NCBI GenBank assembly: GCA_948467495.1
Contig: CAOKEO010000003.1
Location: 9,602 to 73,601 of the forward strand
From: an uncultured Clostridium sp.
Lineage (GTDB): Bacteria > Bacillota > Clostridia > TANB77 > CAG-508
Direction of reading: 5' to 3'
Length of the DNA stretch: 64,000 bases
Shown here: positions 38,538 through 57,052 of the stretch, one piece after another
Numbering within the stretch: the first letter of the stretch is position 1
How the letters are laid out: each line of letters starts with the position of its first letter
Program-made: the position numbers and the translations under genes
The notes under the pieces: generated by a model
Seen by the model: only the letters and a program-made list of their open reading frames with translations
Told to the model about the DNA's origin: nothing
Database searches by the model: none

Positions 38538-39065
38538 TTATATAAGTTGTAATATAGCAACTTCTGCTCCGTCACCTCTTCTAGGTCCTGCTTTGATAAT
38601 ACGTGTATATCCTCCCACATTTTTACCAGCATATTTTGGAGCGATTTCATTGAATAATTTTGATGGTAAATCAATATTATTTCCTTTGTTGTCTTTTACT
38701 TTGTTTAATTTTCTCATCATTTTTCTTCTAGCATTTAATCTAGTTGGCATATCTTTTTGTCTTTGCTCTGTTGTTTCTTCTTTTACTACTTTTAGATATT
38801 CTTTACCATTTTTGCTTTTTACTAATTCTGTTTCTTTATTACCTTTTTCATCTAATTTAGCTTTTACAACTTTAACATCTACCATTTCAAAGTTATCTTT
38901 TTCTTTGATAGCAAGTGATATTATGCTGTCAACAATGGATTTTACTTCTTTTGCTCTAGCTAATGTTGTTTCAACTTTTCCATACATGATTAAATCTGTT
39001 GTTAAGTTTTTTAACATTGCCATTCTGATGTCTGTTGTTCTACCTAATTTTCTATTTGTAGCCAA
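38538..39065 (-). CDS. rplQ: 50S ribosomal protein L17 (with a large internal insertion)
   Basis: (M)ATNRKLGRTTDIRMAMLKNLTTDL...GGYTRIIKAGPRRGDGAEVAILQL. TTG start 39065 with GGAAGGTG upstream. Confidence 0.9.
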   Translation of the reverse strand: MATNRKLGRTTDIRMAMLKNLTTDLIMYGKVETTLARAKEVKSIVDSIISLAIKEKDNFEMVDVKVVKAKLDEKGNKETELVKSKNGKEYLKVVKEETTEQRQKDMPTRLNARRKMMRKLNKVKDNKGNNIDLPSKLFNEIAPKYAGKNVGGYTRIIKAGPRRGDGAEVAILQLI

Positions 39066-39189
39066 TTTTTTCACCTTCCTTTTTCTAATGACAAGGGACA
39101 CTCTTTTCTATTGGTTTATCCACTTGAGTTAAGGAATGTCCCTTTCCCCTAGTGAATTAGTGCTTACCCTATTTTATAAATTTTTCTTA

Positions 39190-40137
39190 CTATTCATCCT
39201 CTGAGGCAAAATCTAATCCCAATGAATGCAATTTTGCTGTTACTTCATCAAATGACTTTTTACCTAAATTTCTTACTTTCATCATATCCGTTTCAGATTT
39301 ATTGGTTAAATCTTCAACGGTAGCAATTCCTGCTCTTTTTAGACAGTTGAATGATCTAACAGATAATTCTAATTCTTCAATTGACATTTCTAATACTTTT
39401 TCTTTTTTAGATTCTTCTTTTTCAATCATAACTTGTGTATTTTTGGTTGCTTCTGATAAATCAATAAATAATTCTAGATGTCCTGTCATTACTTTAGCTG
39501 CTAAGCTTAAAGCTTCATGTGCTTTTAGGCTTCCATCTGTCCATACTTCAATCACTAATTTATCATAATCCACCATTTGACCAACTCTAGTATTTTCTAC
39601 TTGATAGTTGACTTTTTTAACTGGTGTATAAATAGAGTCAATTGGAAGCACAGATATATCCTGATTTGCTTTTTTATTTTTATCAGCAGAATTATATCCT
39701 CTACCTTTATCTGCTGTCATTTCCATTTTTAAACTTCCACCTTCAGAAATAGTAGCAATATGTAACTCTGGATTTAAGATTTCAACAGTTCCATCTGTAA
39801 TGATATCTCCTGCCTTAACTTCTCCTTGACCTTTCATATCAATTCTTAAAATTTTATCTTCATTGTCATCAAATTTTAATCTAACATTTTTCAAATTGAT
39901 AATAATTTCTGGCACATCTTCTACTATATTGGGAATGGTAGAAAATTCATGTAATACTCCATCTATTTTCACACTTGTTATAGCACATCCTGGAAGTGAT
40001 GAAAGTAAAATTCTTCTCAAAGAATTTCCTATTGTTACTCCATAACCTCTTTCTAATGGCTCACATACAAATTTTGCATAATTATTTGTATCATCAACCT
40101 CTAGACATTCAATATTTGGCTTTTCAAATTCTATCAT
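39190..40137 (-). CDS. rpoA: DNA-directed RNA polymerase subunit alpha
   Basis: 315 aa: [15 protein letters not shown]-terminal domain [16 protein letters not shown]. Confidence 0.97.
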
Positions 40138-40165
40138 TTTTACCTCCTAATATTTTAAAAAATTA

Positions 40166-40792
40166 TTATTTTGAGTAAAGCTCTACTATTAAATGTTCTT
40201 CAATTGGAATATCTATATCTTCTCTAGATGCTAATCTGATGACTTTACCGCTTACGTTTGCATTGTCTTTTTCTAGCCATTCTGGAACTGGTCTTTTACT
40301 TGATTCTTCTACATTTATTTTGATAGTAGCATTATCTTTTTTACTTTCTCTTACTGTAATAACATCTCCTGCTTTTACTAGATAAGATGGAATATCTACT
40401 TTTTTACCATTTACTTCAAATTGAGCATGATTTACGAATTGTCTTGCTTGTGCTCTCGATGTTCCAAATCCTAATCGATACACTACATTATCTAATCTAC
40501 TTTCTAATATTTGTAATAAATTTTCACCAGTTACACCTTTTTTATTAGAAGCCATTTCGAAGTATTTTCTAAATTGTTTTTCTCCTACCCCATAATATGC
40601 TTTTGTTTTTTGTTTTTCTCTTAATTGCATTCCGTATTCAGAAAGTTTTGCTCTTTTTTGTCCATGTTGACCTGGTGCATAGTTTCTTCTAGAAATACTA
40701 CATTTATCGGTATAACATCTTTCACCTTTTAAGAACAATTTTTGTCCTTCTCTACGACATCTACGACATTGTTCGTCTTTATATCTTGCCAT
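40166..40792 (-). CDS. rpsD: 30S ribosomal protein S4
   Basis: [26 protein letters not shown]... Start ATG 40792 with AAAGGAG upstream. Confidence 0.96.
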
Positions 40793-40864
40793 TTTCTTAC
40801 TCCTTTCTTCTAATGACAAGGGATACACTAATGTGTTGACCCTTACTTAATTTTTCTATCCATT

Positions 40865-41260
40865 TTATACTCTTCTTCTTTTTGGTGGTCTACAACCATT
40901 GTGTGGTATTGGTGTCACATCTTTAATGCTACTTAATTCAAGACCTGCTGTTTGAAGAGCACGAATTGCTGCTTCTCTACCTGAACCAGGCCCTTTTACA
41001 AATACTTCTACTGATTTTAATCCATGTTCCATAGCAGCTTTAGCAGCTGTTTCTGCAACTTGACCTGCTGCATATGGTGTACTTTTTCTTGAACCTTTAA
41101 ATCCTAATTCTCCAGCACTTCCCCATGCGATTGCATTTCCTTGTGTATCTGTAATAGTAACGATTGTATTATTAAAACTAGAATGAATATGTGCAGCTCC
41201 TTTTTCAATGTTTTTCCTATTTCTTCTAGCTACTTTTTTCGTTGTTACATTTTTAGCCAT
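40865..41260 (-). CDS. rpsK: 30S ribosomal protein S11
   Basis: [18 protein letters not shown]...[16 protein letters not shown]. Confidence 0.97.
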
Positions 41261-41396
41261 TTTGCTTTTTCCTCCTTATTCAAAAATTTCATTCTGAATT
41301 TCTATCTTTCTTTTAAGAAAATTTTTCACTGATTCTATAAAATTGATTAAAAATTATTTTACAATTAGCAAATTTAACCTTTTATCAATTGCTATG

Positions 41397-41583
41397 AAAT
41401 TGATTAAAAATAGTAAGATGTGCAATTTTCACATTCATTTTAATCCGAAGGTGTACATTGGTACATCGAGGTTATGATGATTACAATCTCACTTAGTTCA
41501 ATTGCATAAGTTATCTGTAGTCTGCTTTGCTTCACACAGCTAACTCAAAATTGTGCAGATTGCTGCTTTCAATCGATTTCACT
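41397..41583. repeat. composite repeat: long imperfect palindrome (core GAAGGTGTAC-ATTG-GTACATCGAGG) with a 68-bp CACAATCTCAC..CACACAGC module (41479..41546) inserted in its right arm
   Basis: The arms GAAATTGATTAAAAA.. and ..CTTTCAATCGATTTC are complementary. The inserted module recurs at six other sites. Confidence 0.75.
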
Positions 41584-41952
41584 CTATTTTTTGCTTTTGC
41601 TAACCAACTTCCTAGGACCCTTTCTAGTTCTAGCATTCGTTTTAGTTCTTTGTCCTCTAACAGGAAGACCTCTTCTATGTCTTAGTCCTCTGTAGCATCC
41701 TATTTCAGTAAGTCTTTTGATATTAAGAGCAACTTCTCTTCTCAAGTCTCCCTCTACTGTATATGATTCGTCAATTACTTTTCTAATATCATTTACTTGA
41801 TCATCTGTTAAATCTTTAATTCTAGTATCTGGATTTATACCAGCTTTTTCAAGAATTTTTCTAGAACTTGATACGCCTATACCATAAATGTAGGTAAGTC
41901 CTATTTCCACTCTTTTTTCCTTTGGTAAATCTACTCCTGCTATACGAGCCAT
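41584..41952 (-). CDS. rpsM: 30S ribosomal protein S13
   Basis: [26 protein letters not shown]... GGAGGTG 9 nt upstream of ATG 41952. Confidence 0.97.
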
Positions 41953-42177
41953 ATTTTTTTGCACCTCCAAATTTTTTAATACTTACAAATTCGCTTTGCT
42001 CATCTGTATCAATTTTTTATTTGTCCTAAAAACATTTAAAGGTGAAATGCTACTGGTGTTTACCCCAGTCTCTTTAACGTTTTAAGACATATATATAAAC
42101 ACAAATTTGATATGTAACCCCTATTTTACAAAGGCTCACAGCCGCTACCTAATTTGTGTTATGAACAAATATAAGGA

Positions 42178-42291
42178 TTAACCTTGTCTTTGTTTGTGTT
42201 TAGGGTTTTCACAAATAACTCTAATCACACCTTTTCTTTTTATAATTTTGCATTTATCACATATTTTCTTTACTGATGGTCTTACTTTCAT
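42178..42291 (-). CDS. rpmJ: 50S ribosomal protein L36
   Basis: My translation is [37 protein letters not shown]. It is below the ORF-track size cut-off. GAGGAGGTG upstream. Confidence 0.93.
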
Positions 42292-42511
42292 TTCTGCACC
42301 TCCTCTTTCTTGACAGGGGACACACCTTACTGTGTTGTTTTTTACTTAGGTTAAGGAATGTCTCCTCCCCTTAGATTAAGTGTCTCTACTTTTTAGTCCT
42401 CTGTTTTGTAGTTTCTATATTGGGTTAATTTTTAACTTTTTTACTATCCATACCAAAACAAATAAAATTATTGTTGTTCATTCCTGATTGCTCAAGCAAC
42501 AAGGTAATCAT

Positions 42512-42730
42512 TTACTTTGCTCTCCAAGTAATTCTTCCTCTTGTTAAGTCATAAGGTGACAACTCTACTTTCACCTTATCTCCTGGTAAAATTTTAATAT
42601 AGTTCATTCTCAATTTTCCAGAAATATGAGCTAATATCTGATGTCCATTTTCAAGTTCCACTTTGAAATTAGTATTTGGTAAAGATTCTACTACTTTTCC
42701 CTCTACCTCAATCACATCTTCTTTCGCCAA
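42512..42730 (-). CDS. infA: translation initiation factor IF-1
   Basis: (M)[52 protein letters not shown]... TTG start 42730 with AAGGAGGG 7 nt upstream. Confidence 0.95.
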
Positions 42731-42819
42731 TTTTTTTCCCTCCTTAAAGAGCACTTTTCCTTGATTATTATGCAAAATATGGCTATTTTGCATAATAACT
42801 ATTAGATTATATACTATTT

Positions 42820-43590
42820 TTAAAGTATTGTCAATATTTCCGGCTCTTTTTCTGTAATTAAAATGGTATTTTCATAGTGAGCTGCCAAACTCCCATCTTC
42901 TGTCATAATCGTCCACCCATCATCTAATTCTAAAATATTAGGCTTTCCTGCTATTACCATGGGTTCTATCGCCAATGTCATACCTGGTTCCAATCGAATT
43001 CCCCTTCCTGCTTTTCCATAATTAGGAATCCCTGGATCTTCATGCATTTCTTTTCCAATGCCGTGTCCTTGAAACTCTCTTATAACAGAATATCCTTGTG
43101 AACGTACATACTCTCCAATCGCATGACATACATCACCAATTCGATTTCCTACTTTAGCATATTGAATGCCTTCAAAAAATGCTTGTTTGGTCACTTGCAC
43201 TAGTCTTTCCGCCTCTTTTGATGCTTTCCCAACAAGAAAGGTTCTAGCAGCATCGCCATGATAGCCATTTTTTAAAGCAACTGTATCAATACTTACCACA
43301 TCGCCCTCTTTTATAATTCTATCTTTAGAAGGAATTCCATGAATTACCTCATCATTAATAGAAACACAAAGGGAAGCTGGAAAAGGTGGTACTCCTTTGA
43401 TTCCAATATCATATCCTTTTTCTGCTGGAATCGCCCCCAAACTTCTCATTTTTCGTTCTGCTATTTGGTCTAATTCCCATGTTGACATCCCTGGCTTGAT
43501 ATGTTGTTCTAGTTCCTGATATGTTAATGCAACAACTTTACATACCTCTTGCATTAAAGTAATCTCTTTTTTTGACTTAATGGTTACCAA
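42820..43590 (-). CDS. map: type I methionine aminopeptidase
   Basis: 256 aa with metal ligands in ..[14 protein letters not shown].., ..GHGIG.. and ..AIEPM... TTG start. Confidence 0.93.
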
Positions 43591-43671
43591 CTTAACTCGT
43601 CCTCTCTCTTTTCTAGTTAATGCTATTTATCTACCTAAGGTGTATCTATTATTTTTTACACCTTAAATAGA

Positions 43672-44331
43672 TTACACTGATTTTATGATATCTTCTGCTA
43701 CATCTTTTCCCATCCTATTAATAGAAGTACTTACTGTCTCTGTTCTTAAAACTCCTTTGTTTTCGTAGTATTCTACTAATGGGCTGGTTTGTTCTTCGTA
43801 AATTTGTAATCTCTTATGAATTGCCCCTGAATTACAATCATCTTCTCTTTGTTTCAAAGAAGAACCACATTTATCGCAAATCCCATCTACTTTTGGTGGA
43901 TTTAATTTAATATTATAAGTTGCTTTACAATCTTGATTCGTACATACTCTTCTTGTTAGCATTCTATCAATCAACTCTTCTTTTGGTGTTTGTAAATTAA
44001 TGACTAAATCTACTTTTTTTCCAAACTCTTGTAAAATTTCATCTAATTTTTCAGCTTGTTGTATGGTTCTTGGAAAACCATCTAAAATAGCACCATTTTG
44101 TGCATCCTCTTCTTTTAAACGATTGATTACCATAGGAACCGTTATCTCATCTGGTACCAATTCTCCTTTTGCCATATATTCATTTGCTTTCATTCCTAAT
44201 TCTGTTTTTTCACTAAGATTTTTTCTGAAAATATCCCCTGTTGATATCTGTGGCCACCCCTTTTGTTGGCTAATTAGTCCTGCTACTGTTCCCTTTCCTG
44301 TCCCTTGTGCTCCTAACATGATAATTACCAT
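43672..44331 (-). CDS. adk: adenylate kinase (Cys4 zinc lid)
   Basis: MVIIMLGAQGTGKGT P-loop, lid CTNQDCKATYN...CDKCGSSL. Confidence 0.93.
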   Translation of the reverse strand: MVIIMLGAQGTGKGTVAGLISQQKGWPQISTGDIFRKNLSEKTELGMKANEYMAKGELVPDEITVPMVINRLKEEDAQNGAILDGFPRTIQQAEKLDEILQEFGKKVDLVINLQTPKEELIDRMLTRRVCTNQDCKATYNIKLNPPKVDGICDKCGSSLKQREDDCNSGAIHKRLQIYEEQTSPLVEYYENKGVLRTETVSTSINRMGKDVAEDIIKSV

Positions 44332-44608
44332 ATAAATCCCTCTTTTCATCTTATAAAAATTAGATTATTATATAAATTGTCTAAAACGCAATTAATAATC
44401 TTTATCATATCTATTCTTTTCCTATTCATAAACATGATAAAAATTATTAAATAGAACAACAGTGGCATGTTAAAATTTCTTCACCTTTTAGATTAGTTTT
44501 CATGCCACACCCGTTGTTCGTTCGCCAAAATTGCAAGCAATTTTCTGTAAAATGCTTTCTATTATAGGAAATTCAGAGAATTTTCCTATAATAGAACAAA
44601 ACTAAGAT

Positions 44609-46363: not shown

Positions 46364-46419
46364 TTGGTATTTTGCACCTCCTCTTTCTAAGTTAGCCGTT
46401 AGCGACAAAGGAGCTTTAC

Positions 46420-46636
46420 GGATAACTTATGCAAAATGCGTAAGCATTTTGTAATCCTTAATTTCCTTCTTTTGCCTTTCTCTACCTATGATGAATTATG
46501 GATAACATGCACAAAATGCGCAAGCATTTTGTAATCCTTAATTTCCTTCTTCTGCCTTTCTCTACCTATGATGAATTATGGATAACATGCAAAATGCGTA
46601 AGCATTTTGTAATCCTTAATTCTCTTCTTTGCCTCT
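46420..46636. repeat. tandem repeat, 80-bp period, 2.7 copies, occupying the position where rpmD (L30) normally lies
   Basis: Units start at 46420, 46500 and 46580. Each has an 8-bp hairpin CAAAATGC-GTAA/GCAA-GCATTTTG. Confidence 0.9.
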
Positions 46637-46650
46637 TAGCTATATTCACA

Positions 46651-47136: not shown

Positions 47137-47229
47137 AGGTTTTTGTTAATCCTCCTTTTCTTGTTTTTGTCAAGGGACACTTTATTTATCCATAAGTGTT
47201 TACCCTATCTTAATTTCTGATATTTATTT

Positions 47230-47632: not shown

Positions 47633-47759
47633 TAATTCAAATCAAATTTGATATATTGTGCATTTTTCAGATTGATTACAAGCCGAAGGTGTACGTTGGT
47701 ACATCGAGGTTTGAAATCAATATGGAAAATGTACAAAATGTTAATTTTCATTTGAATTA
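47633..47759. repeat. 127-nt imperfect palindrome filling the rplF-rplR spacer
   Basis: Pairing partners sum to 95392 (e.g. 47681:47711). Inner hairpin GGTGTAC-GTTG-GTACATC. 5 G:T pairs and no A:C pairs on the plus strand. Confidence 0.85.
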
Positions 47760-48298: not shown

Positions 48299-48380
48299 TA
48301 TTTTCCCTCCTTTTTTAATGATTACAATCTCACTTTGCTCGATTGCATAAATTATTTGTAGTTCGCTTCACACAACTAAC

Positions 48381-48779
48381 TTACCATACATAGGCTAATA
48401 CTTCTCCACCAACACCTAATTCTCTAGCTTCTTTATCTGTTTTTAGTCCTTTTGATGTAGAAATGATAGCAATTCCTAATCCATTTAATACCTTTGGTAA
48501 TTCTTCTTTGGATGCGTACACTCTTAATCCTGGTTTACTAATTCTTTTTAAACCATCAATTACTCTGGTTCCTTTTTCATCATATTTTAGTGTAATTCTT
48601 ATGATTCCTTGTGTATCATCTTTGATTTCTTCAAAAGATTTTATATATCCTTCTTTGAATAGAATTTCAGCAATTCCTCGTTTCATATTGGAAGCTGGAA
48701 CATCTACTGTTTTATGCTTTGAACTATTTGCATTTCTAATTCTTGTTAACATATCTGCAATTGGATCTGTAATGTTCAT
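48381..48779 (-). CDS. rpsH: 30S ribosomal protein S8
   Basis: [18 protein letters not shown]...GGEVLAYVW. Confidence 0.97.
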
Positions 48780-48866
48780 GAATTACTTACCTCCTTTTCT
48801 TCTTTCTTAGCAAGGGGCTTATTTCCCCTTCTTATCTTTATTTTAGCATTTATTTATTTGTTAAAA

Positions 48867-48981
48867 AAATCAAAATTAGTATATTGTGCATTTTTGTTAA
48901 GTTTTTCAAGATGAAGGCGTACACGAGTACGTCGAAATTTGAAAAACTTACTGAAAATGTGCAAGATGCTGATTTTCATTT
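48867..48981. repeat. 115-nt imperfect palindrome in the rpsN-rpsH spacer
   Basis: Pairing partners sum to 97848. Inner hairpin GGCGTAC-ACGA-GTACGTC. 7 G:T pairs and no A:C pairs on the plus strand. Confidence 0.85.
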
Positions 48982-48987
48982 ATTTTA

Positions 48988-49173
48988 TTACCAGCTGGCT
49001 TTTTTTACACCTGGAATCTCTCCCTTATGTGCTAACTCTCTAAAACATACACGGCATATACCATATTTTCTGATATAGCTATGTGGTCTTCCACATAATT
49101 TACATCTGTTGTATTCTCTTGTTTTATATTTTTGTGGTCTAGCTTGTTTTATTTTCATTGACTTTTTAGCCAT
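48988..49173 (-). CDS. rpsN: 30S ribosomal protein S14, zinc-binding type Z
   Basis: 61 aa, [23 protein letters not shown]. Confidence 0.96.
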
Positions 49174-49194
49174 AATTTTACTCCTTTCTTACAG

Positions 49195-49477
49195 TTCACA
49201 ATCTCACTTTGTTCGATTGCGTAAGTCATCTGTAATTCGCTTAGCTTCACACAGCCTACTACTGAATGTTCACAATCTCACTCGTTCGATTGCGTAAGTC
49301 ATCCGTAATTCGCTTCGCTTCACACAGCCTACTACTGAATGTTCACAATCTCACTTCGTTCGATTGCGTAAGTCATCTGTAGTTCGCTTCGCTTCACACA
49401 GCCTACTACTGAATGTTCACAATCTCACTCGTTCGATTGCGTAAGTCATCTGTAGTTCGCTTCGCTTCACACAGCTG
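49195..49477. repeat. tandem array (3.8 copies, 73-74 bp) of the CACAATCTCAC..GATTGCGTAAGTCATCTGTA..CACACAGC module
   Basis: Units start at about 49195, 49269, 49342 and 49416. The last unit overlaps the final codons and stop of rplE. Confidence 0.92.
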
Positions 49478-50012
49478 ACTTAAATGGCATTCCTAATGCT
49501 TGTAATAATTCTTTTGATTCTTCGTCTGTTTTGGCTGTTGTTACAAATATGATGTCCATTCCTCTTAATTTATCAACTTTGTCATATTCAATTTCAGGGA
49601 ATATTAATTGTTCTTTTACTCCCATAGAGTAATTTCCTCTACCATCAAAAGAGTTTGTTGATACTCCTCTAAAATCTCTTACTCTTGGAAGGGCTACATT
49701 GAATAATTTGTAAGCAAAGTCATACATTTTGTCTGCTCTTAATGTTACTTTACATCCTATGTTCACACCTTCTCTTAATTTAAATGCTGCAATTGATTTT
49801 TTTGCTTTTGTAATAACTGGTTTTTGTCCTGTTATTTGCATTAAATCATTCATCGCATTTTCCAATGCTTTTGGATTTTCTTTTAAATCTCCTAATCCTA
49901 TATTAATTACTATCTTATCAAGTTTTGGTACTTGCATCACTGATTTATATTCAAATTTTTTCATTAATGCTGGGATTACTTCCTTTTCATATTGTTCTCT
50001 TAATTTTTCCAT
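49467..50012 (-). CDS. rplE: 50S ribosomal protein L5
   Basis: [20 protein letters not shown]...[15 protein letters not shown]. Start ATG 50012. Confidence 0.95.
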
Positions 50013-50038
50013 AATCAACGAATCCTCCTTTCTTTCTT

Positions 50039-50347: not shown

Positions 50348-50400
50348 TTAGGAATTTCCTCCTTTTCTTAGTTTTTATTTTTATTCTCTGTTGTAAAACG

Positions 50401-50640
50401 AATTAGAATTAGTATATTGTGCATTTTGCTGATACTGTTAAGCTTTAGCTGTTACAGTATCAGTATGCAAATGAATTTTATATTCATTTGCCCTCATTTC
50501 ACTAACTTCAAGCTGAAGGCGTACTCTTGTATGTCGAAATTATAATGACTACAATCTCACTTCGTTCGATTACATAAGTTATCTGTAGTTCGCTTTGCTT
50601 CACACAGCTAACTCAAAAATGCACAAGATGCTGATTATAA
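50401..50640. repeat. composite repeat: outer palindrome carrying two different inserted modules
   Basis: Left arm 50401..50430, double-hairpin module 50431..50512, core hairpin GAAGGCGTAC-TCTT-GTATGTCGAAA, CACAATCTCAC module 50547..50614, right arm AAAAATGCACAAGATGCTGATT. Confidence 0.75.
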
Positions 50641-50646
50641 TTTGTT

Positions 50647-51015
50647 TTATAGAACTTCTGGAGCTAATGAAAGAATTTTCATATACTCCTTCTCTCTTAA
50701 CTCTCTTGCAACTGGTCCAAAGATACGAGTTCCCTTTGGCGTTCCATCTTCTTTAATAATAACAGCTGCATTTTCATCAAATTTTATATATGAACCATCT
50801 GCTCTTCTTAATCCACTCTTAGATCTAACAATAACAGCTTTTACAACATCACCTTTTTTAACAACGCCACCTGGTGTTGCTGATTTAACAGAAGCAACTA
50901 TAACATCTCCTATATTAGATGTTTTTCTAAATGATCCTCCTAAACATCTGATACACATGATTTCTTTCGCCCCTGTGTTGTCTGCTACTTTTAATCTTGA
51001 TTGTTGTTGTATCAT
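50647..51015 (-). CDS. rplN: 50S ribosomal protein L14
   Basis: [23 protein letters not shown].... Confidence 0.98.
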
Positions 51016-51031
51016 TTTGGTTCCTCCTTTC

Positions 51032-51295
51032 CTACTTTATATCTGCTTTTTCTACAACTTCAACTACTCTCCATCTTTTATCTTTAGAAAGTGGTCTTGT
51101 TTCCATTACTTTTACTTTATCACCCATTTGGCAAACATTTTCTTCATCATGTGCTTTTAATTTGTAAGTTCTTTTTACTGTTTTACCATATACTTTATGA
51201 CTAACACTAGTTTGAACAGCTACTACTACTGTTTTATCCATCTTATTAGATGTTACTGTACCAATCATAACTTTACGAAGATTTCTTTCTTCCAT
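51032..51295 (-). CDS. rpsQ: 30S ribosomal protein S17
   Basis: [16 protein letters not shown]...[23 protein letters not shown]. Confidence 0.97.
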
Positions 51296-51421
51296 TTAGA
51301 TTTCTCCTTTCTAATAATGTCAGGGGACACACCTCTTCCCCTTAGGTATTCCACTTAAGTTTGGGAAATAGCCCCTCTCCTTGCTTTTAAGTGTTTACCT
51401 TTTTGCTAACATATTTCATTT

Positions 51422-51628
51422 TTATGCTTTAGCATCTAGCATTTTTCTTTCTGTCAATACGGTATTTATTTTAGCTATATCTTTTTTTACCTCTTTTATT
51501 TTCATAGGATTATCTAATCCGTTGGTAGCTAAACTAAATTTTAATTTGAACAATTCTGTTTTTAGTTCACCTAATTCTTTCTCTAAATCTGGTGAAGACA
51601 TTTCTCTTATTTTATTTATCTTCATCAT
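51422..51628 (-). CDS. rpmC: 50S ribosomal protein L29
   Basis: [34 protein letters not shown] 51628 is preferred over the track's GTG at 51634. Confidence 0.93.
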
Positions 51629-52055
51629 TTTCACCTACCTTTTCTGTTTCTCTTGCTACAAATTTTGTTTTGTTAGGTAGTTTGTTCATAGCAAGTCTTA
51701 AGGCTTCTTTTGCAGTTTCTTCTGATACTCCAGAAATCTCAAACATTACTCTTCCTGGTTTTACAACTGCAACCCAATATTCTGGCGCACCTTTACCTTT
51801 ACCCATACGAGTTCCAATAGGTTTTGCTGTAATTGGTTTGTCTGGAAAGATTTTAATCCAAACTTTTCCACCTCTTTTTATATAACGAGTCATAGCAATT
51901 CTGGCTGCTTCAATTTGATTTCCTGTAATTAAAGCACCTGTTACTGCTTGGATTCCATATTCTCCATCTGTAACTTTATTTCCTCTTGTTGCCTTTCCTC
52001 TCATTCTACCTTTTTGTACTTTTCTATGTTTTGTTCTTTTTGGCATTAATGGCAT
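51612..52055 (-). CDS. rplP: 50S ribosomal protein L16
   Basis: [22 protein letters not shown].... Confidence 0.97.
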
Positions 52056-52711
52056 TATTGGTCTCCTCCTTCCATTTTCTTCTCTGGAAGAACTTCTCCT
52101 TTATAAATCCAAACTTTTACACCGATTTTACCATAGGTTGTATCTGCTTCTGCAAATCCATAATCAATATCAGCTCTTAAAGTTTGTAGTGGAATATTTC
52201 CTTCTTTATAGAATTCAGTTCTAGCCATGTCAGCTCCACCTAATCTTCCAGATACAGCAGTTTTAATTCCTAAAGCACCTGCTTTCATAGATTTTTGCAT
52301 ACATTGTTTCATGGCTCTTCTGAATGAAATTCTTCTTTCTAATTGTCCTGCAATATTTTCTGCTACTAATTGAGCATCTGTATCCATATTTTTAACTTCT
52401 ACGATGTTTAAATTAACATCTTTACCAATTAATTTTGTTAATTCTGCTTTTACACTTTCTACACCTGCTCCACCTTTTCCAATAACAATTCCTGGTTTTG
52501 CCGTGTGTAAATTAACCTTGATTGCTTTTGCTGTTCTTTCAATTTCAATTTTAGAAATACCAGCAAGATATAATTTTTTCTTTAAAAATTTACGAATCTT
52601 TTGATCTTCTACTAAATAATTTGCAAAGTTTCTTGAATCTGCATACCATTTAGAATTCCAATCTTTTATGATTCCAACTCTTACTCCTGTTGGATGTACT
52701 TTTTGTCCCAT
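52055..52711 (-). CDS. rpsC: 30S ribosomal protein S3
   Basis: [24 protein letters not shown].... Confidence 0.98.
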
Positions 52712-52718
52712 ATTATTC

Positions 52719-53084
52719 CTAGTCCTCCTTTTCTTTCAAAACTATTGTAATGTGACTTGTTCTTTTTCTAATTCTTACTGCTGAACCTTTTGCAGCTGGA
52801 CGTATTCTTTTTAAAGTTGGTCCTTGATTGCTATAGATTTCAGCAACATATAATTTCTCATGTCTCATGTCATGATTATTTTCAGCATTTGCGATAGCTG
52901 ATTTTAATAATTTCTCTATGATTTCTGATGATGCTTTTGGTGTGAATTTTACGATAGCTAAAGCTTCATCTACATCTTTTCCTCGAATTAAATCTGCTAC
53001 GATTTTAACTTTTCTAGCTGAAATCCTTGCATATTTCAAGGTTGCTTTTGCTTCGTTTCTAACTAATGTTTCTTGCTCTTGCAC
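52719..53084 (-). CDS. rplV: 50S ribosomal protein L22
   Basis: [25 protein letters not shown]... GTG start with AAGGAGG upstream. Confidence 0.95.
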
Positions 53085-53156
53085 TTTTCTTACCTCCTTA
53101 GATTAGTGTCTAGGGGCTACTTATCCATTTAAGTTTTTCCCCTTCTATTTGTCTCT

Positions 53157-53432
53157 CTATTTATTTGTTTTCTTATCTCCTGCATGACCTTTGAAGGTTC
53201 TTGTAGGAGCAAATTCACCTAATTTATGACCAATCATTTCTTCTGCTATATAAATTGGAACATGTTTTCTTCCATCATGTACAGCAATTGTATGACCAAC
53301 CATTTGTGGATATATTGTTGAAGCTCTAGACCATGTCTTTAAAACTTCTTTATTTCCAGATTCATTCATAGCTTCTACTCTTTTTAGTAGTTCTGGTGCT
53401 ACATATGGTTTTTTCTTGCTTGATCTTGACAT
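53157..53432 (-). CDS. rpsS: 30S ribosomal protein S19
   Basis: [30 protein letters not shown].... Confidence 0.97.
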
Positions 53433-53460
53433 ATTATAAATGTCCTCCCTTCTTTTTTTA

Positions 53461-53576
53461 GTAAGTTATCCGTAAAACTCACTTCGTTCGCTAACGGCTT
53501 TTCTATTGTTCACAATCTCCCTTTGGTCGATTGCGTAAGTTATCCGTAGAGCTCGCTTTGCTCGCTAACGGCTAAC
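53461..53576. repeat. 1.6 copies of the CACAATCTC..GATTGCGTAAGTTATCCGTAG..GCTAACGGCTAAC module variant
   Basis: Begins immediately after the rplB stop (TGA-GTTAGCCGTTAGCG in mRNA sense). An inverted fragment lies at 46391..46432. Confidence 0.8.
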
Positions 53577-54404
53577 TCACTTTCTTCTCTTTACAATAAA
53601 TTTATTAGATTGTTTCTTTTTATTTCTTGTTTTATATCCAAGAGCTGGTTTACCCCAAGGTGTCATTGGTCCAGCGTGTCCTACTGGTGCTCTACCTTCA
53701 CCACCACCATGAGGGTGATCTACTGGGTTCATTACAGAACCTCTAACAGTTGGTCTAATTCCCATATGTCTTTTTCTACCAGCTTTACCAATTTTAACAT
53801 TCTCATGATCACTATTTCCGATTACTCCGATAGTAGCTCTACAGGTTGCTAAAATTAATCTCATTTCTCCTGATGGAAGTCTTACATGGGCATATTTTCC
53901 TTCTTTTGCCATTAATTGTGCACTTTGTCCTGCTGCTTTTACTAATTTTCCACCTTGTTTTGGATTTAACTCAATGTTATGAATTAAAGTACCTACTGGA
54001 ATTGAACTAATTGGCATACAGTTTCCTGGTTTGATATCAGCTGTTTCTCCAGATATCACTTTATCTCCATCTTTTAATCCTTGTGGAGCTAAGATATATG
54101 CTTTTTCTCCATCTTCGTATTCCACTAATGCAATATTAGCACTTCTGTTTGGATCATATTCAATTCCTATTACAGTTGCTGCCATATCGTCTTTTCTTCT
54201 TTTAAAATCTACTATTCTATATTTTTGTCTATTTCCACCACCTTGATGTCTTACTGTGATTCTTCCATAGGAGTTTCTTCCTGCATTTTTCTTTTTCTTT
54301 GCTAATAAAGATTTCTCAGGAGTTTTCTTTGTAATTTCTCCAAAGTCTGAAACTGTCATATTTCTTCTAGATGGTGTATAGGGTTTGAAGTGTTTCATTC
54401 CCAT
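53577..54404 (-). CDS. rplB: 50S ribosomal protein L2
   Basis: [14 protein letters not shown]...[15 protein letters not shown]. Start ATG 54404 (AAAGGAG upstream). Confidence 0.96.
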
Positions 54405-54675
54405 TTTTTTCTCCTTTCTCGAATTCATGAAAAACTTCGTTTTACGTCGTTACTGATGCTATTAAAGCTTTGCTTGTTACTGCATTAGTATGCAGTTTGC
54501 GTAGCAAACTGACTTCATTAAGTTTTCCTAGTAATACTCGTTTTTGTTGAATTCTCTACTCTACTGATTGGTTTTCGAGAGTAGTTGCGGACTTTTTCCT
54601 GCTCCGCATAACAGATATTCTTTATTTTCCTGGTATTTTCCAGCTAATTTTTTTATCTAATTTCCATTTGTGTAC

Positions 54676-54868
54676 GAAATTGATTAAAAGTGATATATTG
54701 TGCATTTTGCTGATATTGTTAAGCTTCAGCTGTTACAATATCAGTATGCAAATGAATTTTATATTCATTTGCCTCCATTTTCTTAATCTTAAACTGAAGG
54801 CGTACGTTGGTACGTCGAAATTTGTAATCAATAGCGAAAATGTGCAAGATGTTGCTTTTAATCGATTT
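54676..54868. repeat. composite repeat: outer palindrome with inserted double-hairpin module
   Basis: Arms GAAATTGATTAAAAG.. and ..CTTTTAATCGATTTC. Inserted module 54711..54796. Core GAAGGCGTAC-GTTG-GTACGTCGAAA. Ends at the rplW stop codon. Confidence 0.8.
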
Positions 54869-55216
54869 CTAGGCACCCATGAATTCGTCAATACTATCTT
54901 TGTATTTTTTCGTAACTTTTGTTGCTTTTCCACCTTTTGCTAAATAAGAGGTATCTTCTGGATTAGTATCAATTGTAACAATTGCTTTCTTCCAATCTGA
55001 AGTCTTACCAATGTGGTAACCAACTCTTTTCTTCTTACCATTTACATTCATGGTATTCACTTTTAAAACTTTTACCTCAAAAAGTTTTTCAACAGCTTTT
55101 GCTATTTCCACTTTTGTTGCTTTTTTATTTACTTTGAAAGTGTATTTTCCTTCTTGCAATTGATCATTACTTTTTTCTGTAACAATTGGTGCTACAATAA
55201 TCTCTTCTGGTTTCAT
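54869..55216 (-). CDS. rplW: 50S ribosomal protein L23
   Basis: IVAPIVTEKSNDQLQEGKYTFKVNKKATKVEIAKAVEKLFEVKV.... Confidence 0.95.
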   Translation of the reverse strand: MKPEEIIVAPIVTEKSNDQLQEGKYTFKVNKKATKVEIAKAVEKLFEVKVLKVNTMNVNGKKKRVGYHIGKTSDWKKAIVTIDTNPEDTSYLAKGGKATKVTKKYKDSIDEFMGA

Positions 55217-55840
55217 TTAAGCGTACACCTCCTCTAATTTTTTAACAGTATCTACTGGTAAAATTAGATTTGTATATTTTAATAAATCAAATACATTAAT
55301 ATTATTGGCAGTAATTGTTTTAACTCCTTCAATATTTCTAGATGACATAAAAACATTTTTATTGTTTTCTGGAAGAACGATTAATGTTTTTCCTTCTACT
55401 TTTAAATCTGTTAAAGCCTTTACCATTGTCTTTGTTTTGATTTCTTTTACTTCTAATTTATCTACTACTGTTAATTCTTTTTCTAACACTTTAGAACTTA
55501 AGATTGATTTAATTGCCAATCTTCTTTCTTTTTTATTAACGGTATATTTGTAAGAACGAGGTTTTGGTCCTAATGCGATACCACCTTTAATCCATTGTGG
55601 GCTTCTTGTAGAACCTTGTCTTGCTCTACCTGTTCCTTTTTGTCTCCATGGTTTTTTACCACCACCAGAAACTTCTGCTCTTGTTTTAGTACTTCCAGTA
55701 CCTTGTCTTTGATTAGCTAAATAGTTTACTAACACACTATGTACAATGTTTTCATTTGGTTCAATTCCAAATACAGTGTCAGCTAATTCTATATCACTTA
55801 CTTTTTTACCTTTTAAATCATATACATCTACTTTTGGCAT
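55217..55840 (-). CDS. rplD: 50S ribosomal protein L4
   Basis: RQGTGSTKTRAEVSGGGKKPWRQKGTGRARQGSTRSPQW. Confidence 0.97.
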   Translation of the reverse strand: MPKVDVYDLKGKKVSDIELADTVFGIEPNENIVHSVLVNYLANQRQGTGSTKTRAEVSGGGKKPWRQKGTGRARQGSTRSPQWIKGGIALGPKPRSYKYTVNKKERRLAIKSILSSKVLEKELTVVDKLEVKEIKTKTMVKALTDLKVEGKTLIVLPENNKNVFMSSRNIEGVKTITANNINVFDLLKYTNLILPVDTVKKLEEVYA

Positions 55841-55858
55841 TATCTTTTCCTCCTTCCT

Positions 55859-56491
55859 CTATTTACTAGCCTTTACAGCTGATTTTACTTTTAGGATAGC
55901 TCCTTTTGCTCCTGGAACGCTTCCTTTTACTAAAATTACATTTTTATCCATATCTACTCTTACAACATCTAAGTTTTGAATTGTAATAGTAACTCTTCCC
56001 ATATGTCCTGGTAATTTCTTACCTTTAAATACTCTACCTGGTGTTGAAGTAGATCCCATTGAACCTGGTCTTCTATGATACATAGAACCATGTCCCATTG
56101 GTCCTCTGTGTTGACCATGTCTTTTGATAACACCTTGGAACCCTTTTCCTTTTGATATTCCTTGTACATCTACTTTTTCTCCTGCTTCGAAAATGTCTGC
56201 TTTGATTTCATCTCCTACTTTGTAGCCTGCTACATCTTCTACTCTGAATTCTCTTAGATGTTTTTTATTAGCAAGTTTTGCTTTTGCAAAATGTCCTGCT
56301 TCTGGTTTGTTTATATGTTTATCTTTGATTTCTCCGTATCCTAATTGAATGGCATCATATCCATCTGTTTCTACTGTTTTTACTTGTGCTACAATATTTC
56401 CTGCTGTTTCGATAACAGTAACTGGAATGACGTTTCCTTTTTCATCGAAGATTTGTGTCATACCGATTTTTTTTCCGATAATTCCTTTCAT
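55859..56491 (-). CDS. rplC: 50S ribosomal protein L3
   Basis: [28 protein letters not shown].... Confidence 0.98.
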
Positions 56492-56728
56492 TTTCTTTCC
56501 TCCTAACTATTGGCTGAAAATAATAATTCTAAACTTCGTCTCACTTCGTTAAATTTCGTTCTAAAATCCCCGACCTACACAAGTACGCCTCCGGTTTTAT
56601 CACTTATTTGCCTTGTGATACTCGTTTTAAATTCTTATTTAGATTTCGGCTTGGTTTTGCTGAGGCTGTTAAATTTGTTTGTCACAGCATCAGTATGCAA
56701 ATACATTAAGCATTTGTTTTGCTTAATC

Positions 56729-57052
56729 TTACAATTTTATCTCTATGTCAACACCAGCTGGTAACTCTAATTTCATTAGACTGTCCACTGTTTTTTGTGT
56801 TGGATAAAGTATATCGATTACTCTTTTATGGGTTCTCATTTCAAATTGTTCTCTTGAATCTTTGTATTTGTGTGGAGAACGTAAAATTGTTACGATTTCT
56901 TTTTGTGTTGGTAATGGAATAGGACCTGAAACCTTTGCTCCTGTTTTTTTAGCAGTATCTACTATCTTTTCAGCAGACTGATCTAAAACTACATGGTCAT
57001 ACGCTTTCAATCTTATTCTAATTTTCTCACTTGTTGCTATTGTGTTTGCCAT
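56729..57052 (-). CDS. rpsJ: 30S ribosomal protein S10
   Basis: [40 protein letters not shown]. Confidence 0.98.

Follow-up and report, generated by a model that had tools for sequence, protein, structure and literature searches.

Structured repeat families in the long intercistronic spacers of an S10-spc-alpha operon from an uncultured Clostridium

The S10-spc-alpha super-operon, whose cistrons are closely packed in distant Clostridia, contains long spacers in a 64,000-nt stretch of DNA from an uncultured Clostridium sp. (the window). What are these spacers made of, and why have they been retained between genes of this kind?

Spacer lengths and content in the operon and its relatives

The operon lies on the minus strand of the window, with the rpsJ start at 57052 and the rplQ stop at 38538. 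With cistron starts chosen by Shine–Dalgarno (SD) sequence, 18 of the 29 gaps between rpsJ and rplQ were 80 nt or longer, and together these accounted for 3,983 of 18,515 nt, in agreement with the 4.0 of 18.5 kb estimated in the original prediction. All of the individual gap lengths given there were also reproduced (e.g. rplW–rplB, 464; rpsM–rpsK, 323; rplN–rplX, 299; rplE–rpsN, 293; rpsE–rplO, 287; secY–adk, 277; rpsJ–rplC, 237). The four module types that it named are real and correspond to the families designated A, B, C and D here (Table 1). Its description of the gaps as filled by repeats and not by unique sequence held for 59% of the spacer DNA (2,339 of 3,983 nt, in six repeat families). 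The other 41% or so lies outside all six, and includes the rpmJ–rpsM and map–infA spacers, conserved at the orthologous position only, as well as secY–adk, adk–map and an internal consensus promoter.

Table 1. Features of the operon and its spacers, with positions in the window
Feature	Location	Coordinates	Strand	Evidence or remark
S10-spc-alpha super-operon, 30 genes	rpsJ to rplQ	38538..57052	-	ORFs and SD-anchored starts
Perfect sigma-70 consensus, TTGACA-17-TATAAT		57421..57449	-	pattern match only
Perfect consensus promoter-like site	end of map, upstream of infA	42806..42834	-	pattern match
Terminator-like hairpin, then T run	after rplQ	38505..38519	-	
A, two tandem units	rpsJ leader	57078..57214	-	nhmmer E 1e-19 to 7e-19
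A, unit and half unit (first hairpin only)	rplB–rpsS	53440..53578	-	
A, four tandem units	rplE–rpsN	49194..49481	-	
A, unit	rpsH–rplF	48320..48381	-	
A, unit nested in B	rplN–rplX	50548..50614	-	
A, unit nested in B	rpsM–rpsK	41479..41546	-	
B with nested C	rplW–rplB	54677..54868	+	fold -68.1 vs -46.1 kcal/mol
B with nested A and C	rplN–rplX	50396..50647	+	
B	rpsN–rpsH	48864..48985	+	-46.8 vs -28.2
B	rplF–rplR	47638..47754	+	-56.8 vs -31.4; z -11.9
B with nested A	rpsM–rpsK	41395..41579	+	right arm degenerate, low boundary approximate
C, double hairpin	rpsJ–rplC	56659..56719	-	
C, further copies	operon	54709-54771, 54453-54507, 50428-50489		
C, copy	outside operon	34338-34375		
D, full length	upstream of rpsQ	51301..51410	-	covariance model 79.9 bits, E 1e-16
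D, full length	upstream of rpmJ	42294..42397	-	covariance model 69.6 bits
D, full length	upstream of rplQ	39072..39179	-	covariance model 92.7 bits
D, internally deleted	upstream of rpsE	47151..47215	-	covariance model E 9e-5
D, weaker remnant	before rpsD	40797-40869	-	covariance model E 0.033
D, weaker remnant	before rplV	53090-53152	-	covariance model E 0.12
D, weaker remnant	before rpsH	48798-48858	-	covariance model E 0.46
E, three tandem ~80-nt units	rpsE–rplO	46416..46644	-	
F, 113 nt		56525..56637	-	
Unique non-repeat spacer	rpmJ–rpsM	41953..42177	-	-50.5 sense vs -29.7 antisense

Over 26 comparable gaps, the proportion of 80 nt or more was 58% in the window, against a median of 27% in its own clade and 8% in distant Clostridia, where the corresponding gaps are 10–40 nt. 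The contrast drawn originally with compact loci elsewhere was thus confirmed. The operon is not exceptional within its own genome: the median co-directional gap is 103 nt elsewhere in the window and 93 nt in the operon, the spacing of which is ordinary and merely not exempt.

The same repeat families were found in independent MAGs from one clade of gut Clostridia of approximately 30% GC; no Rfam match was obtained for any of the families, and none of A, B and D was phage-borne. It is apparent from the orthologous S10-spc-alpha loci that gain and loss are lineage-specific, with different gaps filled in each species, even where RplE is 97% identical. The rplE–rpsN gap, for example, holds four A units in the window, one in relative L121 and none in L122, and the presence of B at rplF–rplR and rplN–rplX varies among clade members. 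The spacer modules are lineage-specific insertions, not artefacts.

Several features are tied to particular positions. The gene rpmD (L30) is missing from the window and from 26 clade loci, as compared with its presence in 48 of 54 distant loci, and family E, seen only at this orthologous position, sits where rpmD would be. Family F was found in relatives only in ribosomal-protein gaps. At least 10 relatives have the rpmJ–rpsM spacer conserved in the same place; it is more strongly structured in the sense direction, and is thus a candidate alpha-operon leader. The sigma-70 consensus upstream of rpsJ is likely, from its sequence, to be the operon promoter, and would give a leader of approximately 365 nt.

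Folding and orientation of families A, B and D

Family A is a dispersed unit of approximately 70 nt with two covarying hairpins and conserved G.U pairing. Ten copies of the ~70-nt unit were present in the operon region, where none was expected from shuffles. In all, 137 matches were found, spread over 81 stretches of MAGs carrying the label uncultured Clostridium or Clostridia. This count, like those for the other families, includes orthologous positions in related species and so does not represent independent events. Pairing was observed in 92% of cells (24–40% in slid controls), double changes in 239 (73 in shuffles); a single G.U pair was retained in 102 of 106 copies, and the sense-strand fold was the better one in 104 of 106. 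Between co-directional genes, 59 arrays were sense and 2 antisense; since most genes point the way the replication fork moves, a bias relative to transcription is not fully separable here from one relative to replication. The upstream stop codon coincides with the first bases of A (offset -1 or -2) in 18 cases, 16 of them TAA, and in 10 more the upstream called ORF enters A and stops at offset 12 (nine TGA, one TAA). The rplE frame enters the first unit of the rplE–rpsN array and stops at the TGA of that unit. The rpsH–rplF site is occupied in eight related genomes too.

Family B is a palindromic hairpin of 117–252 nt, present five times in the operon, in which A and C are nested at fixed sites. 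The stable fold of the rplW–rplB element is on the plus strand, i.e. antisense to the operon, and the antisense fold was the better one in every B copy compared (15 of 15; -58.8 vs -38.0 kcal/mol). All B copies in ribosomal-protein gaps share one orientation, and among copies from low-GC metagenomes 23 were antisense to both neighbours and none was sense. The mRNA of the operon, or its antisense strand, must carry the recurring modules, as had been reasoned originally. Among the unusual features of B is an apex of 25 nt that is conserved across phyla, recurring on strand-specific hairpins in metagenome contigs of 25–73% GC. No ORF is conserved inside B.

Family D, of approximately 105 nt, has a 13-bp helix and ends some 10 nt before the SD. 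The helix covaries (GC 23/AU 13; CG 25/UA 9; UA 14/AU 7) and includes G.U pairs on the sense strand; the support for a proposed pseudoknot is weak. The deleted copy upstream of rpsE is one of the SD-proximal hairpins noted originally, and the rplR–rpsE gap yielded a full D in 10 matches among relatives. There were 223 matches to D, of which 179 were sense to both neighbours and 3 antisense; a search with the covariance model gave 194. In approximately 85% of 202 copies the next gene is a ribosomal or translation gene. The downstream gene belongs to S10-spc-alpha in 142 of the 202, whereas D outside the cluster precedes L19 (11), L20 (5), L11 (3), S7 (3), RpoB (3), EF-G (2), L35 and RF1; some 15% of copies lie before unrelated genes (BacA/UppP, 9; FabG, 3). 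At least 17 different cluster cistrons and 8 other translation or transcription genes are preceded by D, with up to 11 copies per operon. Given this gene-class bias, D may represent a control element of a new, shared type. At any single position it is dispensable. The strand-specific folding (A and D sense, B antisense), the orientation biases of 59:2 and 179:3, the near-restriction of D to ribosomal and translation genes and the cross-phylum apex of B all go beyond what was noted originally.

Explanations for the retention of the elements

We consider it probable, on balance, that several families of structured repeats have filled transcribed spacers under selection acting at the RNA level, with D acting in cis on translation genes. 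To the observed insertions, folds, orientation biases and gene-class bias, this reading adds co-transcription, RNA-level selection and a stabiliser or insulator role for D, all of which we infer. Small non-coding repeat families, restricted to a single clade of AT-rich, uncultured gut Clostridia whose genomes measure about 1.5 Mb, would have arrived by insertion or duplication of DNA in the interval from a stop codon to the SD of the following cistron. They would then be co-transcribed with the operon, and the survival of each copy would be set by selection on the transcript. A, which often supplies the stop codon of the upstream gene, would fold as a double hairpin in the mRNA and be retained only in the sense direction. 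B, an ERIC/BOX-like long hairpin hosting A and C as nested modules, would be tolerated only with its stem of ~50 bp on the non-mRNA strand, the mRNA version being weakened by C.A mismatches. D, a folded domain different in kind from A and B, has multiplied almost exclusively before genes for ribosomal proteins, translation factors and RNA polymerase. It may act in cis as a self-contained structure at the 5' side of the downstream cistron, shielding the processed mRNA from 5'–3' decay and insulating the ribosome-binding site, and would not be an SD-sequestering switch.

The alternative that retains most weight, though we regard it as doubtful, is that all of the families are purely selfish or neutral MITE/REP-like parasites, the biases reflecting removal of harmful orientations, and that D is confined to translation genes because gene conversion or recombination copies it among highly expressed cistrons, whose stop-spacer-AAAGGAGG contexts are very similar. 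Presence and absence differ between near-identical species. Within one operon, in relatives L124 and L125, the D copies of separate gaps are near-identical, indicating recent spread inside the genome. Many copies are located at contig ends, as expected for multi-copy repeats; AATT borders the rplN–rplX B element on both sides but occurs just once in the empty site of L122; and F occurs in both orientations. D-bearing cistrons differ between close species and the window holds four decayed copies, so for D a selfish element fits as well as a useful one. Against this, the compensatory changes and conserved G.U pairs in A and D show strand-specific maintenance of structure. Furthermore, D precedes the unlinked rplS, rplT, rplK, rpsG, fusA, rpoB and prfA at orthologous positions in several species, whereas A, in the same genomes, is less restricted (approximately 36% of its flanking genes belong to the cluster).

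D might instead be the operator through which one trans-acting factor, whether a ribosomal protein, a different RNA-binding protein or a small ligand, controls many ribosomal and translation genes together, making it a regulon-wide cis element that coordinates their translation. Its gene-class bias, its fixed position relative to the SD, its complex fold with a possible pseudoknot and its long invariant stretches, GGGGAGGGGACA and GUGUCCCCUGACA, which exceed what pairing needs, are consistent with such a role. The variable occupancy of cistrons among close species speaks against it, as do the lack of a candidate regulator or an Rfam relative and the predicted accessibility of the SD, which is mostly unpaired beside D and nearly independent of it (0.67, vs 0.77 without D). 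We consider an operator unlikely.

Slightly less likely still is that replication sets orientation, A and perhaps B having been moved as single-stranded DNA by an HUH enzyme (IS200/IS605- or RAYT-type) with strand-specific insertion at the fork. The sense bias would then follow from most genes running with replication; approximately 85–90% of window genes are on one strand. Folding is strand-specific, and DNA can accommodate G.T pairs too. A has a constant 5' junction, TTAAG|TYAGC, at or on the stop codon, and its apical GCGAAGC, which we take to be a hyperstable DNA mini-hairpin, hints at a single-stranded DNA role. With ~10–12% lagging-strand genes, however, about 7 of 61 arrays of A should be antisense and only 2 were; no transposase adjoining any copy was found on casual inspection; the stable strand of B is presumably the one least exposed as single-stranded DNA in replication and transcription; and the gene-class bias of D is left unexplained.

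It is improbable that B represents antisense RNA genes, i.e. long plus-strand hairpin RNAs acting on ribosomal-protein mRNA. The stable antisense fold with its many G.U pairs would suit them, and a weak plus-strand promoter-like match recurs in B (47629, 48858, 50391, 54710), but such matches number 64 in the region against 79 expected from shuffles, a plus-strand terminator is absent, and the apex hairpin takes all orientations with respect to genes in higher-GC organisms. Finally, although MAG contigs are often broken by repeats, assembly or binning artefacts are scarcely credible, given that numerous assemblies, made independently in separate studies and from different hosts, have the same families in the same gaps, and that the flanking genes are intact and collinear.

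Comparison with known systems

The original statement that no described system matches this arrangement was too strong. MIRU are structured repeats co-transcribed within operons, and the same is known of REP/BIME, BOX, ERIC and Correia elements (PMC3049150, PMC2229807, PMC3733652). The best reading of the present elements, under the explanation favoured above, is as BOX/ERIC/MIRU-like structured repeats, and of D as a putative cis element specific to translation genes.

The operator of the Escherichia coli alpha operon is a pseudoknot. Autogenous ribosomal-protein leaders (S8/spc, L4/S10, S4/alpha, L20, S15 and others) are structured RNAs upstream of or over the ribosome-binding site (PMC3616713, PMC3849166). 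D shares their position, and perhaps their fold; however, each of the known leaders serves one protein at one cistron and is present in single copy, whereas D is repeated before many cistrons. Gram-positive mRNAs have 5' stabiliser hairpins, and chloroplast operons have intercistronic sites guarded by proteins; in both, a 5' barrier stops 5'–3' exonucleases after endonucleolytic cleavage and also keeps the ribosome-binding site open. This likeness concerns the possible working of D and is an analogy only, D being an RNA structure, unlike the protein-binding site of chloroplasts.

REP elements are 20–40 nt long, carry GTAG or CGTC as a terminal tag, have stems of 8–9 bp and commonly form inverted dimers; a survey of RAYTs reported none in Firmicutes (PMC3733652). 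The present families resemble RAYT-mobilised REP/BIME as short structured extragenic repeats between co-directional or convergent genes that are probably transcribed and may be mobilised as single-stranded DNA. A differs in its 70-nt length, two hairpins and head-to-tail arrays, and the CGTC in the B apex has no following stem. MIRU (Supply et al. 1997) are reportedly units of 40–100 nt, often tandem, intercistronic in operons, in a single orientation to transcription, and are said to overlap the stop or start codon of the gene on either side. A is likewise intercistronic, forms tandem arrays, keeps to a single orientation and overlaps stop codons; MIRU, however, are read as small coupled ORFs, whereas A is a covarying double hairpin without a conserved ORF.

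Longer ERIC variants arise through insertions at fixed internal sites. ERIC (IRU) elements of enterobacteria are imperfect palindromes of ~127 nt with a highly conserved central core, located in transcribed intergenic regions, and their effects on mRNA are orientation-dependent (PMC2229807, PMC3049150). B matches this layout, but its core sequence differs and recurs across contigs of widely varying GC content, whereas ERIC is confined to one family.

BOX elements, which occur in Firmicutes (Streptococcus pneumoniae, S. suis), have end modules that form a stem around a variable number of self-folding modules of ~45–70 nt, and are transcribed together with operons, which they extend at the 5' or 3' end (PMC3049150). 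No sequence similarity to the present families was seen, and these differ from BOX in the antisense stable fold of B, in the almost uniformly sense A abutting stop codons, in lying inside the S10-spc-alpha operon and in having no known partner IS. The modular logic is nevertheless the same, with B carrying nested A (0–1 units) and C, and A also occurring as free tandem arrays.

Spacer length and repeat content of the S10–spc–alpha operon

Start codons in the operon (38538–57052, minus strand) were chosen by means of the Shine–Dalgarno (SD) sequence of each gene. The gene order is rpsJ, rplC, rplD, rplW, rplB, rpsS, rplV, rpsC, rplP, rpmC, rpsQ, rplN, rplX, rplE, rpsN, rpsH, rplF, rplR, rpsE, rplO, secY, adk, map, infA, rpmJ, rpsM, rpsK, rpsD, rpoA, rplQ. 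With these SD-anchored starts, the gap lengths listed in the original prediction were reproduced exactly. It is apparent that 18 of the 29 intercistronic gaps are 80 nt or longer, and that the gaps sum to 3,983 of 18,515 nt, in agreement with the earlier figure of about 4.0 of 18.5 kb.

Repeat detection, together with profile and covariance-model searches, defined six families of spacer repeats (A–F). Together they account for 2,339 nt (59%) of the spacer DNA, and to that extent the repeat origin claimed for it stands; the other 41% is not repeat-derived. The SD-proximal hairpins that had been noted earlier proved to be decayed copies of family D. When the whole window was compared with Rfam 15 at the gathering score, two tRNAs were the only matches, and positions 38000–57800 yielded none at E ≤ 1.

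Repeat families and other features of the operon and its surroundings (window coordinates)
Feature	Form	Position	Strand	Copies and remarks
Family A	~70-nt double hairpin			10 full and one half copy; 4 in tandem at rplE–rpsN, 2 in the rpsJ leader, 2 nested in B
Family B	long hairpin, 117–252 nt			5 copies
Family B, 25-nt centres		47679–47712, 48907–48940, 50509–50541, 54791–54823, 41442–41473	antisense-strand apex	
Family C	~60-nt double hairpin	34338 (copy outside operon)		4 in operon (two nested in B), 1 outside
Family D	~105 nt			3 full (before rpsQ, rpmJ and rplQ), 4 decayed
Family E	~80-nt units			three in tandem, rpsE–rplO
Family F	113 nt			one copy, rpsJ–rplC
Perfect sigma-70 consensus	TTGACA-17-TATAAT	57449–57421	minus	~365 nt 5′ of rpsJ; pattern match
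Second perfect sigma-70 consensus		42834–42806	minus	before infA; pattern match
Terminator-like hairpin		38519–38505	minus	after rplQ; pattern match
AT-rich sequence, ~45–70 nt	…TTTTGTTTTTTGCAATAAAAAATATAGAAACTTTCTAATTGAAATATATCAC…	15988–16031, 34460–34529, 57482–57513, 58667–58724		5′ of several units
Small repeats outside operon		5791–5840/11642–11691, 15931–16007/28792–28868, 6824–6865/33138–33179		
Direct-repeat pairs	79–84% identity	16459–16647 with 37663–38083; 21908–22013 with 38391–38496		

The non-repeat portion includes spacers that are conserved in relatives at the orthologous position only. One of these, the rpmJ–rpsM spacer (41953–42177), is a unique sequence of 225 nt in the window and of 181–249 nt across most of the clade, i.e. 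the uncultured gut Clostridia of about 30% G+C that carry these families; it is conserved at that position only. Its predicted fold is –50.5 kcal/mol on the sense strand (that of the flanking transcripts) versus –29.7 kcal/mol on the antisense strand, it has no match in Rfam, and it may be the leader of the rpsM–rpsK–rpsD–rpoA–rplQ unit. Other non-repeat spacer is situated in the map–infA promoter region and at secY–adk and adk–map.

If the consensus match upstream of rpsJ represents a promoter, the S10 leader would be unusually long, with two family A units inside it. A flanking sequence of this region (57053–57449), TTGCCAAGGTAATTAAGTTAGC, recurs in L221, L266 and L270, three loci from the database scans. 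One copy of the AT-rich sequence listed in the table lies just 5′ of the putative S10 promoter, and that sequence may be a shared promoter-region element. When intrinsic terminators (GC-rich hairpins that precede a run of U in the transcript) were sought, only the site downstream of rplQ qualified at the operon end, and two minus-strand candidates inside B centres were without a proper T run. The elements, which sit inside the operon and carry no terminator themselves, would be co-transcribed with it.

The G+C content of the window is about 30%, and its strand skews are strong, consistent with leading-strand genes. Co-directional gaps in the window outside the operon have a median of 103 nt, versus 93 nt within it, and 18 of those 33 gaps are 80 nt or longer. 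Long spacers are, then, genome-wide in the window, and the operon is merely not spared. Families A, B, D and F are found in none of the co-directional gaps outside the operon (window positions 1–38500 and 57600–64000). Other small repeats are carried there. Both of the longer direct-repeat pairs overlap broken ORFs just 3′ of rplQ and near a tRNA-Met/tRNA-Tyr pair, and they resemble the remains of a mobile element that has decayed.

Gain and loss of elements among relatives

A search with RplE, restricted to one genome per species, yielded 80 loci, and all 30 operon proteins were mapped onto each of the loci. Those with RplE identity of at least 80% derive from MAGs of the gut or rumen that bear the label uncultured Clostridium or Clostridia; one of them is named Clostridium sp. 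27_14. The scan for family A added loci from Clostridium sp. CAG:343 and CAG:354_28_25, and one clade member is represented by a closed chromosome of 1.55 Mb (OV788638.1).

As originally predicted, the cluster is compact elsewhere: in the other Clostridia (termed distant here) the gaps are 10–40 nt, and a median of 8% of comparable gaps reach 80 nt. The corresponding median in the clade is 27% (range 12–72%), and the enlarged gaps differ by species. The window (58%) and locus L124 (72%) are extremes of the clade; L122 has just 12% of such gaps, despite an RplE that is 97% identical to that of the window.

Alignment of orthologous loci from related Clostridia revealed clean presence or absence of elements between filled and empty sites. 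At rplE–rpsN, L122 is without an A unit, L121 has a single one and the window has four. At rplF–rplR, family B is present in the window, L127 and L129, the site is empty in L123 and L126, and a left-arm remnant is kept in L121 and L122. Assembly artefact, which had been named at the outset as a ground for rejecting the long spacers, is ruled out, because many independent assemblies share the same families at the same gaps.

Of the 54 distant loci, 48 carry rpmD (L30) between rpsE and rplO; the gene is absent from the window and from each of the 26 clade loci (L121–L146). Its position in the window (46364–46650) holds the three tandem 80-nt units of family E. These units were considered as rpmD remnants, a possibility that was rejected: L30 queries find nothing in the window. 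Most distant Clostridia have a map–infA gap of about 300 nt, presumably an extra gene, that is absent from the clade.

Sense-strand folds of families A and D and the other-strand fold of family B

The 3′ end of family D, GUGUCCCYUGWCA, is situated approximately 10 nt before the SD sequence of the next cistron. Its 13-bp helix S2 (GGGGACAUUCCUU / AAGGUGUGUCCCC) shows compensatory changes at five positions and sense-strand G.U pairs. A pseudoknot, S1, is retained as tentative only: 70–96% of alignment cells pair, and covariation is slight, in part owing to poor alignment. A TTGACA at the 3′ end was considered as a –35 box and discarded, with no –10 sequence at the right spacing by inspection.

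The D pattern was found in at least 119 stretches, and among the matches listed a profile search yielded 223 copies and the covariance model 194. All but about ten of the hosts among those matches are labelled Clostridia, Clostridium, Clostridiaceae, Eubacteriales or Bacillota. The pattern was also seen in Desulfocucumis and Candidatus Formimonas contigs, from Peptococcaceae-type Firmicutes (L290, L295, L331, L350, L362, L379, L384, L392 and L394); these may be either relatives of D or chance matches. Among the matches listed, D is sense to both neighbours in 179 cases and antisense to both in 3. In 142 of 202 of them the downstream gene belongs to S10–spc–alpha, over 17 different cistrons, and the other Pfam-confirmed downstream genes in this set encode L19 (11), L20 (5), L11 (3), S7 (3), RpoB (3), EF-G (2), L35 and RF1. 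Translation or transcription machinery thus lies downstream of about 85% of the D copies listed, the main exceptions being BacA/UppP (9) and FabG (3). Simple ORF calling extends many of the downstream genes (L278–L394) from a GTG inside D, with prefixes of the type VCPLT… or VSPD…, and the same error is likely in the automatic annotation of these MAGs.

The predicted probability that the SD sequence is unpaired is 0.67 with D, 0.52 with only its 3′ strand and 0.77 without D. Accessibility is therefore similar with and without D (0.67 versus 0.77), and D is not an SD-sequestering switch of the riboswitch or thermosensor type. Within L124, where one operon contains 11 D copies, and likewise within L125, copies at different gaps are near-identical, so D has spread recently within genomes; given the four truncated copies in the window, it also decays. 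The families might all be purely selfish, D moving by recombination between similar SD contexts, a possible but doubtful account. D might alternatively be an operator for a shared regulator, which we consider unlikely. Preferred to both is a benefit of D to the downstream cistron: most economically, D would be a self-contained 5′ structure that blocks 5′–3′ decay after endonucleolytic processing, and it would also insulate the ribosome-binding site.

For family A, a pattern of about 50 bits was used; an earlier, degenerate pattern had given mostly chance matches in unrelated phyla. The 50-bit pattern was found in 81 stretches, every one from MAGs labelled Clostridium or Clostridia, and a profile search identified 137 units in 103 arrays. 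In the same group of MAGs, A is without the gene-class restriction of D: S10–spc–alpha genes make up about 36% of A-flanking genes, and other neighbours, by inspection, include rplL, rplA, rpsP, rbfA, thrS, gatB, pyk, pyrG and a recurrent ABC ATPase.

Two adjacent hairpins are supported by aligning 106 distinct copies. An outer helix of 10 pairs and a small C-GAA-G hairpin at its tip make up the first, and the second consists of seven pairs followed by a tandem G.A/A.G internal loop and two further pairs. Of the alignment cells, 92% are paired, with changes on both sides in 239 cells versus 73 in shuffles, and pairing falls to 24–40% when partners are slid by 1–3 columns. One G.U pair is kept in 102 of the 106 copies, and the sense strand is the more stable in 104 (–17.1 versus –10.3 kcal/mol). 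Both A and helix S2 of D therefore covary on the transcribed strand with sense G.U pairs, as sought for a structured cis-acting RNA.

Between co-directional genes, 59 A arrays are sense and 2 antisense. Transposition of single-stranded DNA at the fork of replication might have set the orientation, as is hinted at by the apex of A, GCGAAGC, which in DNA forms a hyperstable mini-hairpin; however, roughly 7 antisense arrays would be expected versus the 2 of 61 found, and this explanation is improbable. Selection at the level of the transcript would instead filter the orientation of the elements.

The 5′ end of A is (T)TAAGTYAGC, and many copies start with (T)TAAG and end with …TTAA. In 18 arrays the upstream stop codon coincides with the first bases of A (offset –1 or –2), being TAA in 16; in 10 others the called upstream ORF enters A and stops at offset 12 (TGA in nine, TAA in one). 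The rplE frame of the window (49467–49490) enters the first A unit and ends at its TGA (…MPFKSAV*), versus …MPFK(N)* in relatives without the unit; the repeat has thus altered the C-terminal end of an essential gene together with its stop codon. Terminal inverted repeats were not found in A, D or E.

Family B has arms of 33–52 nt that are 79–85% complementary, i.e. terminal inverted repeats of the kind that define a MITE. At rplN–rplX it is bounded by AATT at both ends, versus one AATT in the empty site of L122, as might result from target-site duplication, although the AATT is possibly part of the inverted repeat. No transposase was noticed next to the element copies on casual inspection. Relatives carry B in these five gaps too, without exception in the orientation of the window copies. 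Two of the five window copies contain A at one fixed internal site, and two contain C at another; A also forms free arrays of 2–4 units. A 41-codon ORF just after the upstream stop in two window copies was considered as a small protein gene and rejected, its start and frame not being conserved in 25 others.

Two copies of B fold on the plus strand, antisense to the operon, at –56.8 versus –31.4 and –46.8 versus –28.2 kcal/mol on the minus strand. The antisense strand is the more stable in 15 of 15 copies from the window and relatives (means –58.8 versus –38.0 kcal/mol), and the mismatches on the sense strand are C.A, corresponding to G.U on the antisense strand. That B encodes antisense RNAs from this strand is highly improbable. 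In our reading, rather, the only orientation tolerated in the operon is that which spares the mRNA a duplex of about 50 bp.

The apex strand of B reads GAAGGYGUAC-N4-GUAYRUCGARR, with an invariant GAAGGCGUAC-N4-GUACGUCGAG and a fixed G.U pair. A metagenome scan for the 25-nt centre yielded at least 120 stretches (L395–L514), of which chance matches are roughly estimated at a few tens. Among the matches listed, 108 of 110 testable apexes cap a long hairpin of far greater stability on the GAAGGYGUAC strand; their contigs range from 25 to 73% G+C, and arm sequences from different G+C classes are unrelated, though complementarity is kept. On the low-G+C contigs listed, 23 of 28 apexes are antisense to the genes on either side and no apex is sense, and on the others every arrangement occurs. 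Rfam gave no match at twenty apex-hairpin loci, ARAGORN detected no tRNA or tmRNA at such loci, and a literature search with apex sequence strings returned unrelated primers only. The apex was also considered as a CGTC-tagged REP and rejected: CGTC is not at the start of an 8–9-bp stem as defined in PMC3733652. A phage origin was likewise discarded, the A and D patterns being absent from 2.9 million viral contigs, in which the B apex occurs once.

Significance and comparison with known systems

The S10–spc–alpha cluster is the textbook compact operon, with tight cistron spacing and stoichiometrically matched output. Here, a whole lineage tolerates, and keeps reshuffling, structured inserts of 60–460 nt between most of its cistrons; therefore, balanced ribosomal-protein synthesis needs no tight spacing. 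The gap-by-gap differences of close species constitute a natural experiment on intercistronic structure versus processing, stability and translation. Should D act in cis, it would provide the first case of a single RNA element common to most of the ribosomal-protein cistrons, and would represent a regulon assembled by a mobile element. The cross-phylum, strand-specific B apex is a separate lead to a hairpin class, in RNA or in single-stranded DNA, that would be new. In practical terms, the repeats break MAG assemblies and mislead gene callers (GTG extensions into D; rplE into A).

A more ambitious, and rather unlikely, proposal is that D is a regulon-wide cis element whose outputs are set by a single trans-acting factor or nuclease, and that the B apex marks an undescribed pan-bacterial class of strand-specific hairpins to which a conserved protein, of the host or of a mobile element, binds. 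Were it true, the D domain would have been copied before dozens of ribosomal-protein, translation-factor and RNA-polymerase cistrons, as a bacterial counterpart of eukaryotic 5′TOP logic built by a mobile element.

MIRU are co-transcribed structured repeats inside operons. The same is known of REP/BIME, BOX, ERIC and Correia elements (PMC3049150, PMC2229807, PMC3733652, PMC3184786). The opinion expressed in the original prediction, that no described system matches, is thus too strong. REP sequences (REP/RAYT) are palindromes of 20–40 nt with a terminal GTAG/CGTC tag, whereas A is 70 nt long, has two hairpins and contains GTAG at tandem junctions only. The BOX layout of paired end modules and an internal module in variable number is found in B, in which the arms pair and A or C is nested; with ERIC, B has in common a modular layout with nested modules at fixed sites. 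Like MIRU, A is intercistronic, in one orientation (59 sense versus 2) and overlaps stop codons, but MIRU encodes a small coupled ORF, whereas A is without a conserved ORF and the 41-codon ORF of B is not conserved in relatives. Each of the known ribosomal-protein leaders is an operator at one site for one protein (PMC3616713, PMC3849166), whereas D is repeated before most cistrons.

Families A, B, C and F are new members or variants among the known co-transcribed repeats, in a lineage without previously described ones. What goes beyond the known kinds is the wholesale colonisation of the most conserved compact bacterial operon, the opposite strand-specific folds among families in the same spacers, and the tie of one family to translation-machinery genes.
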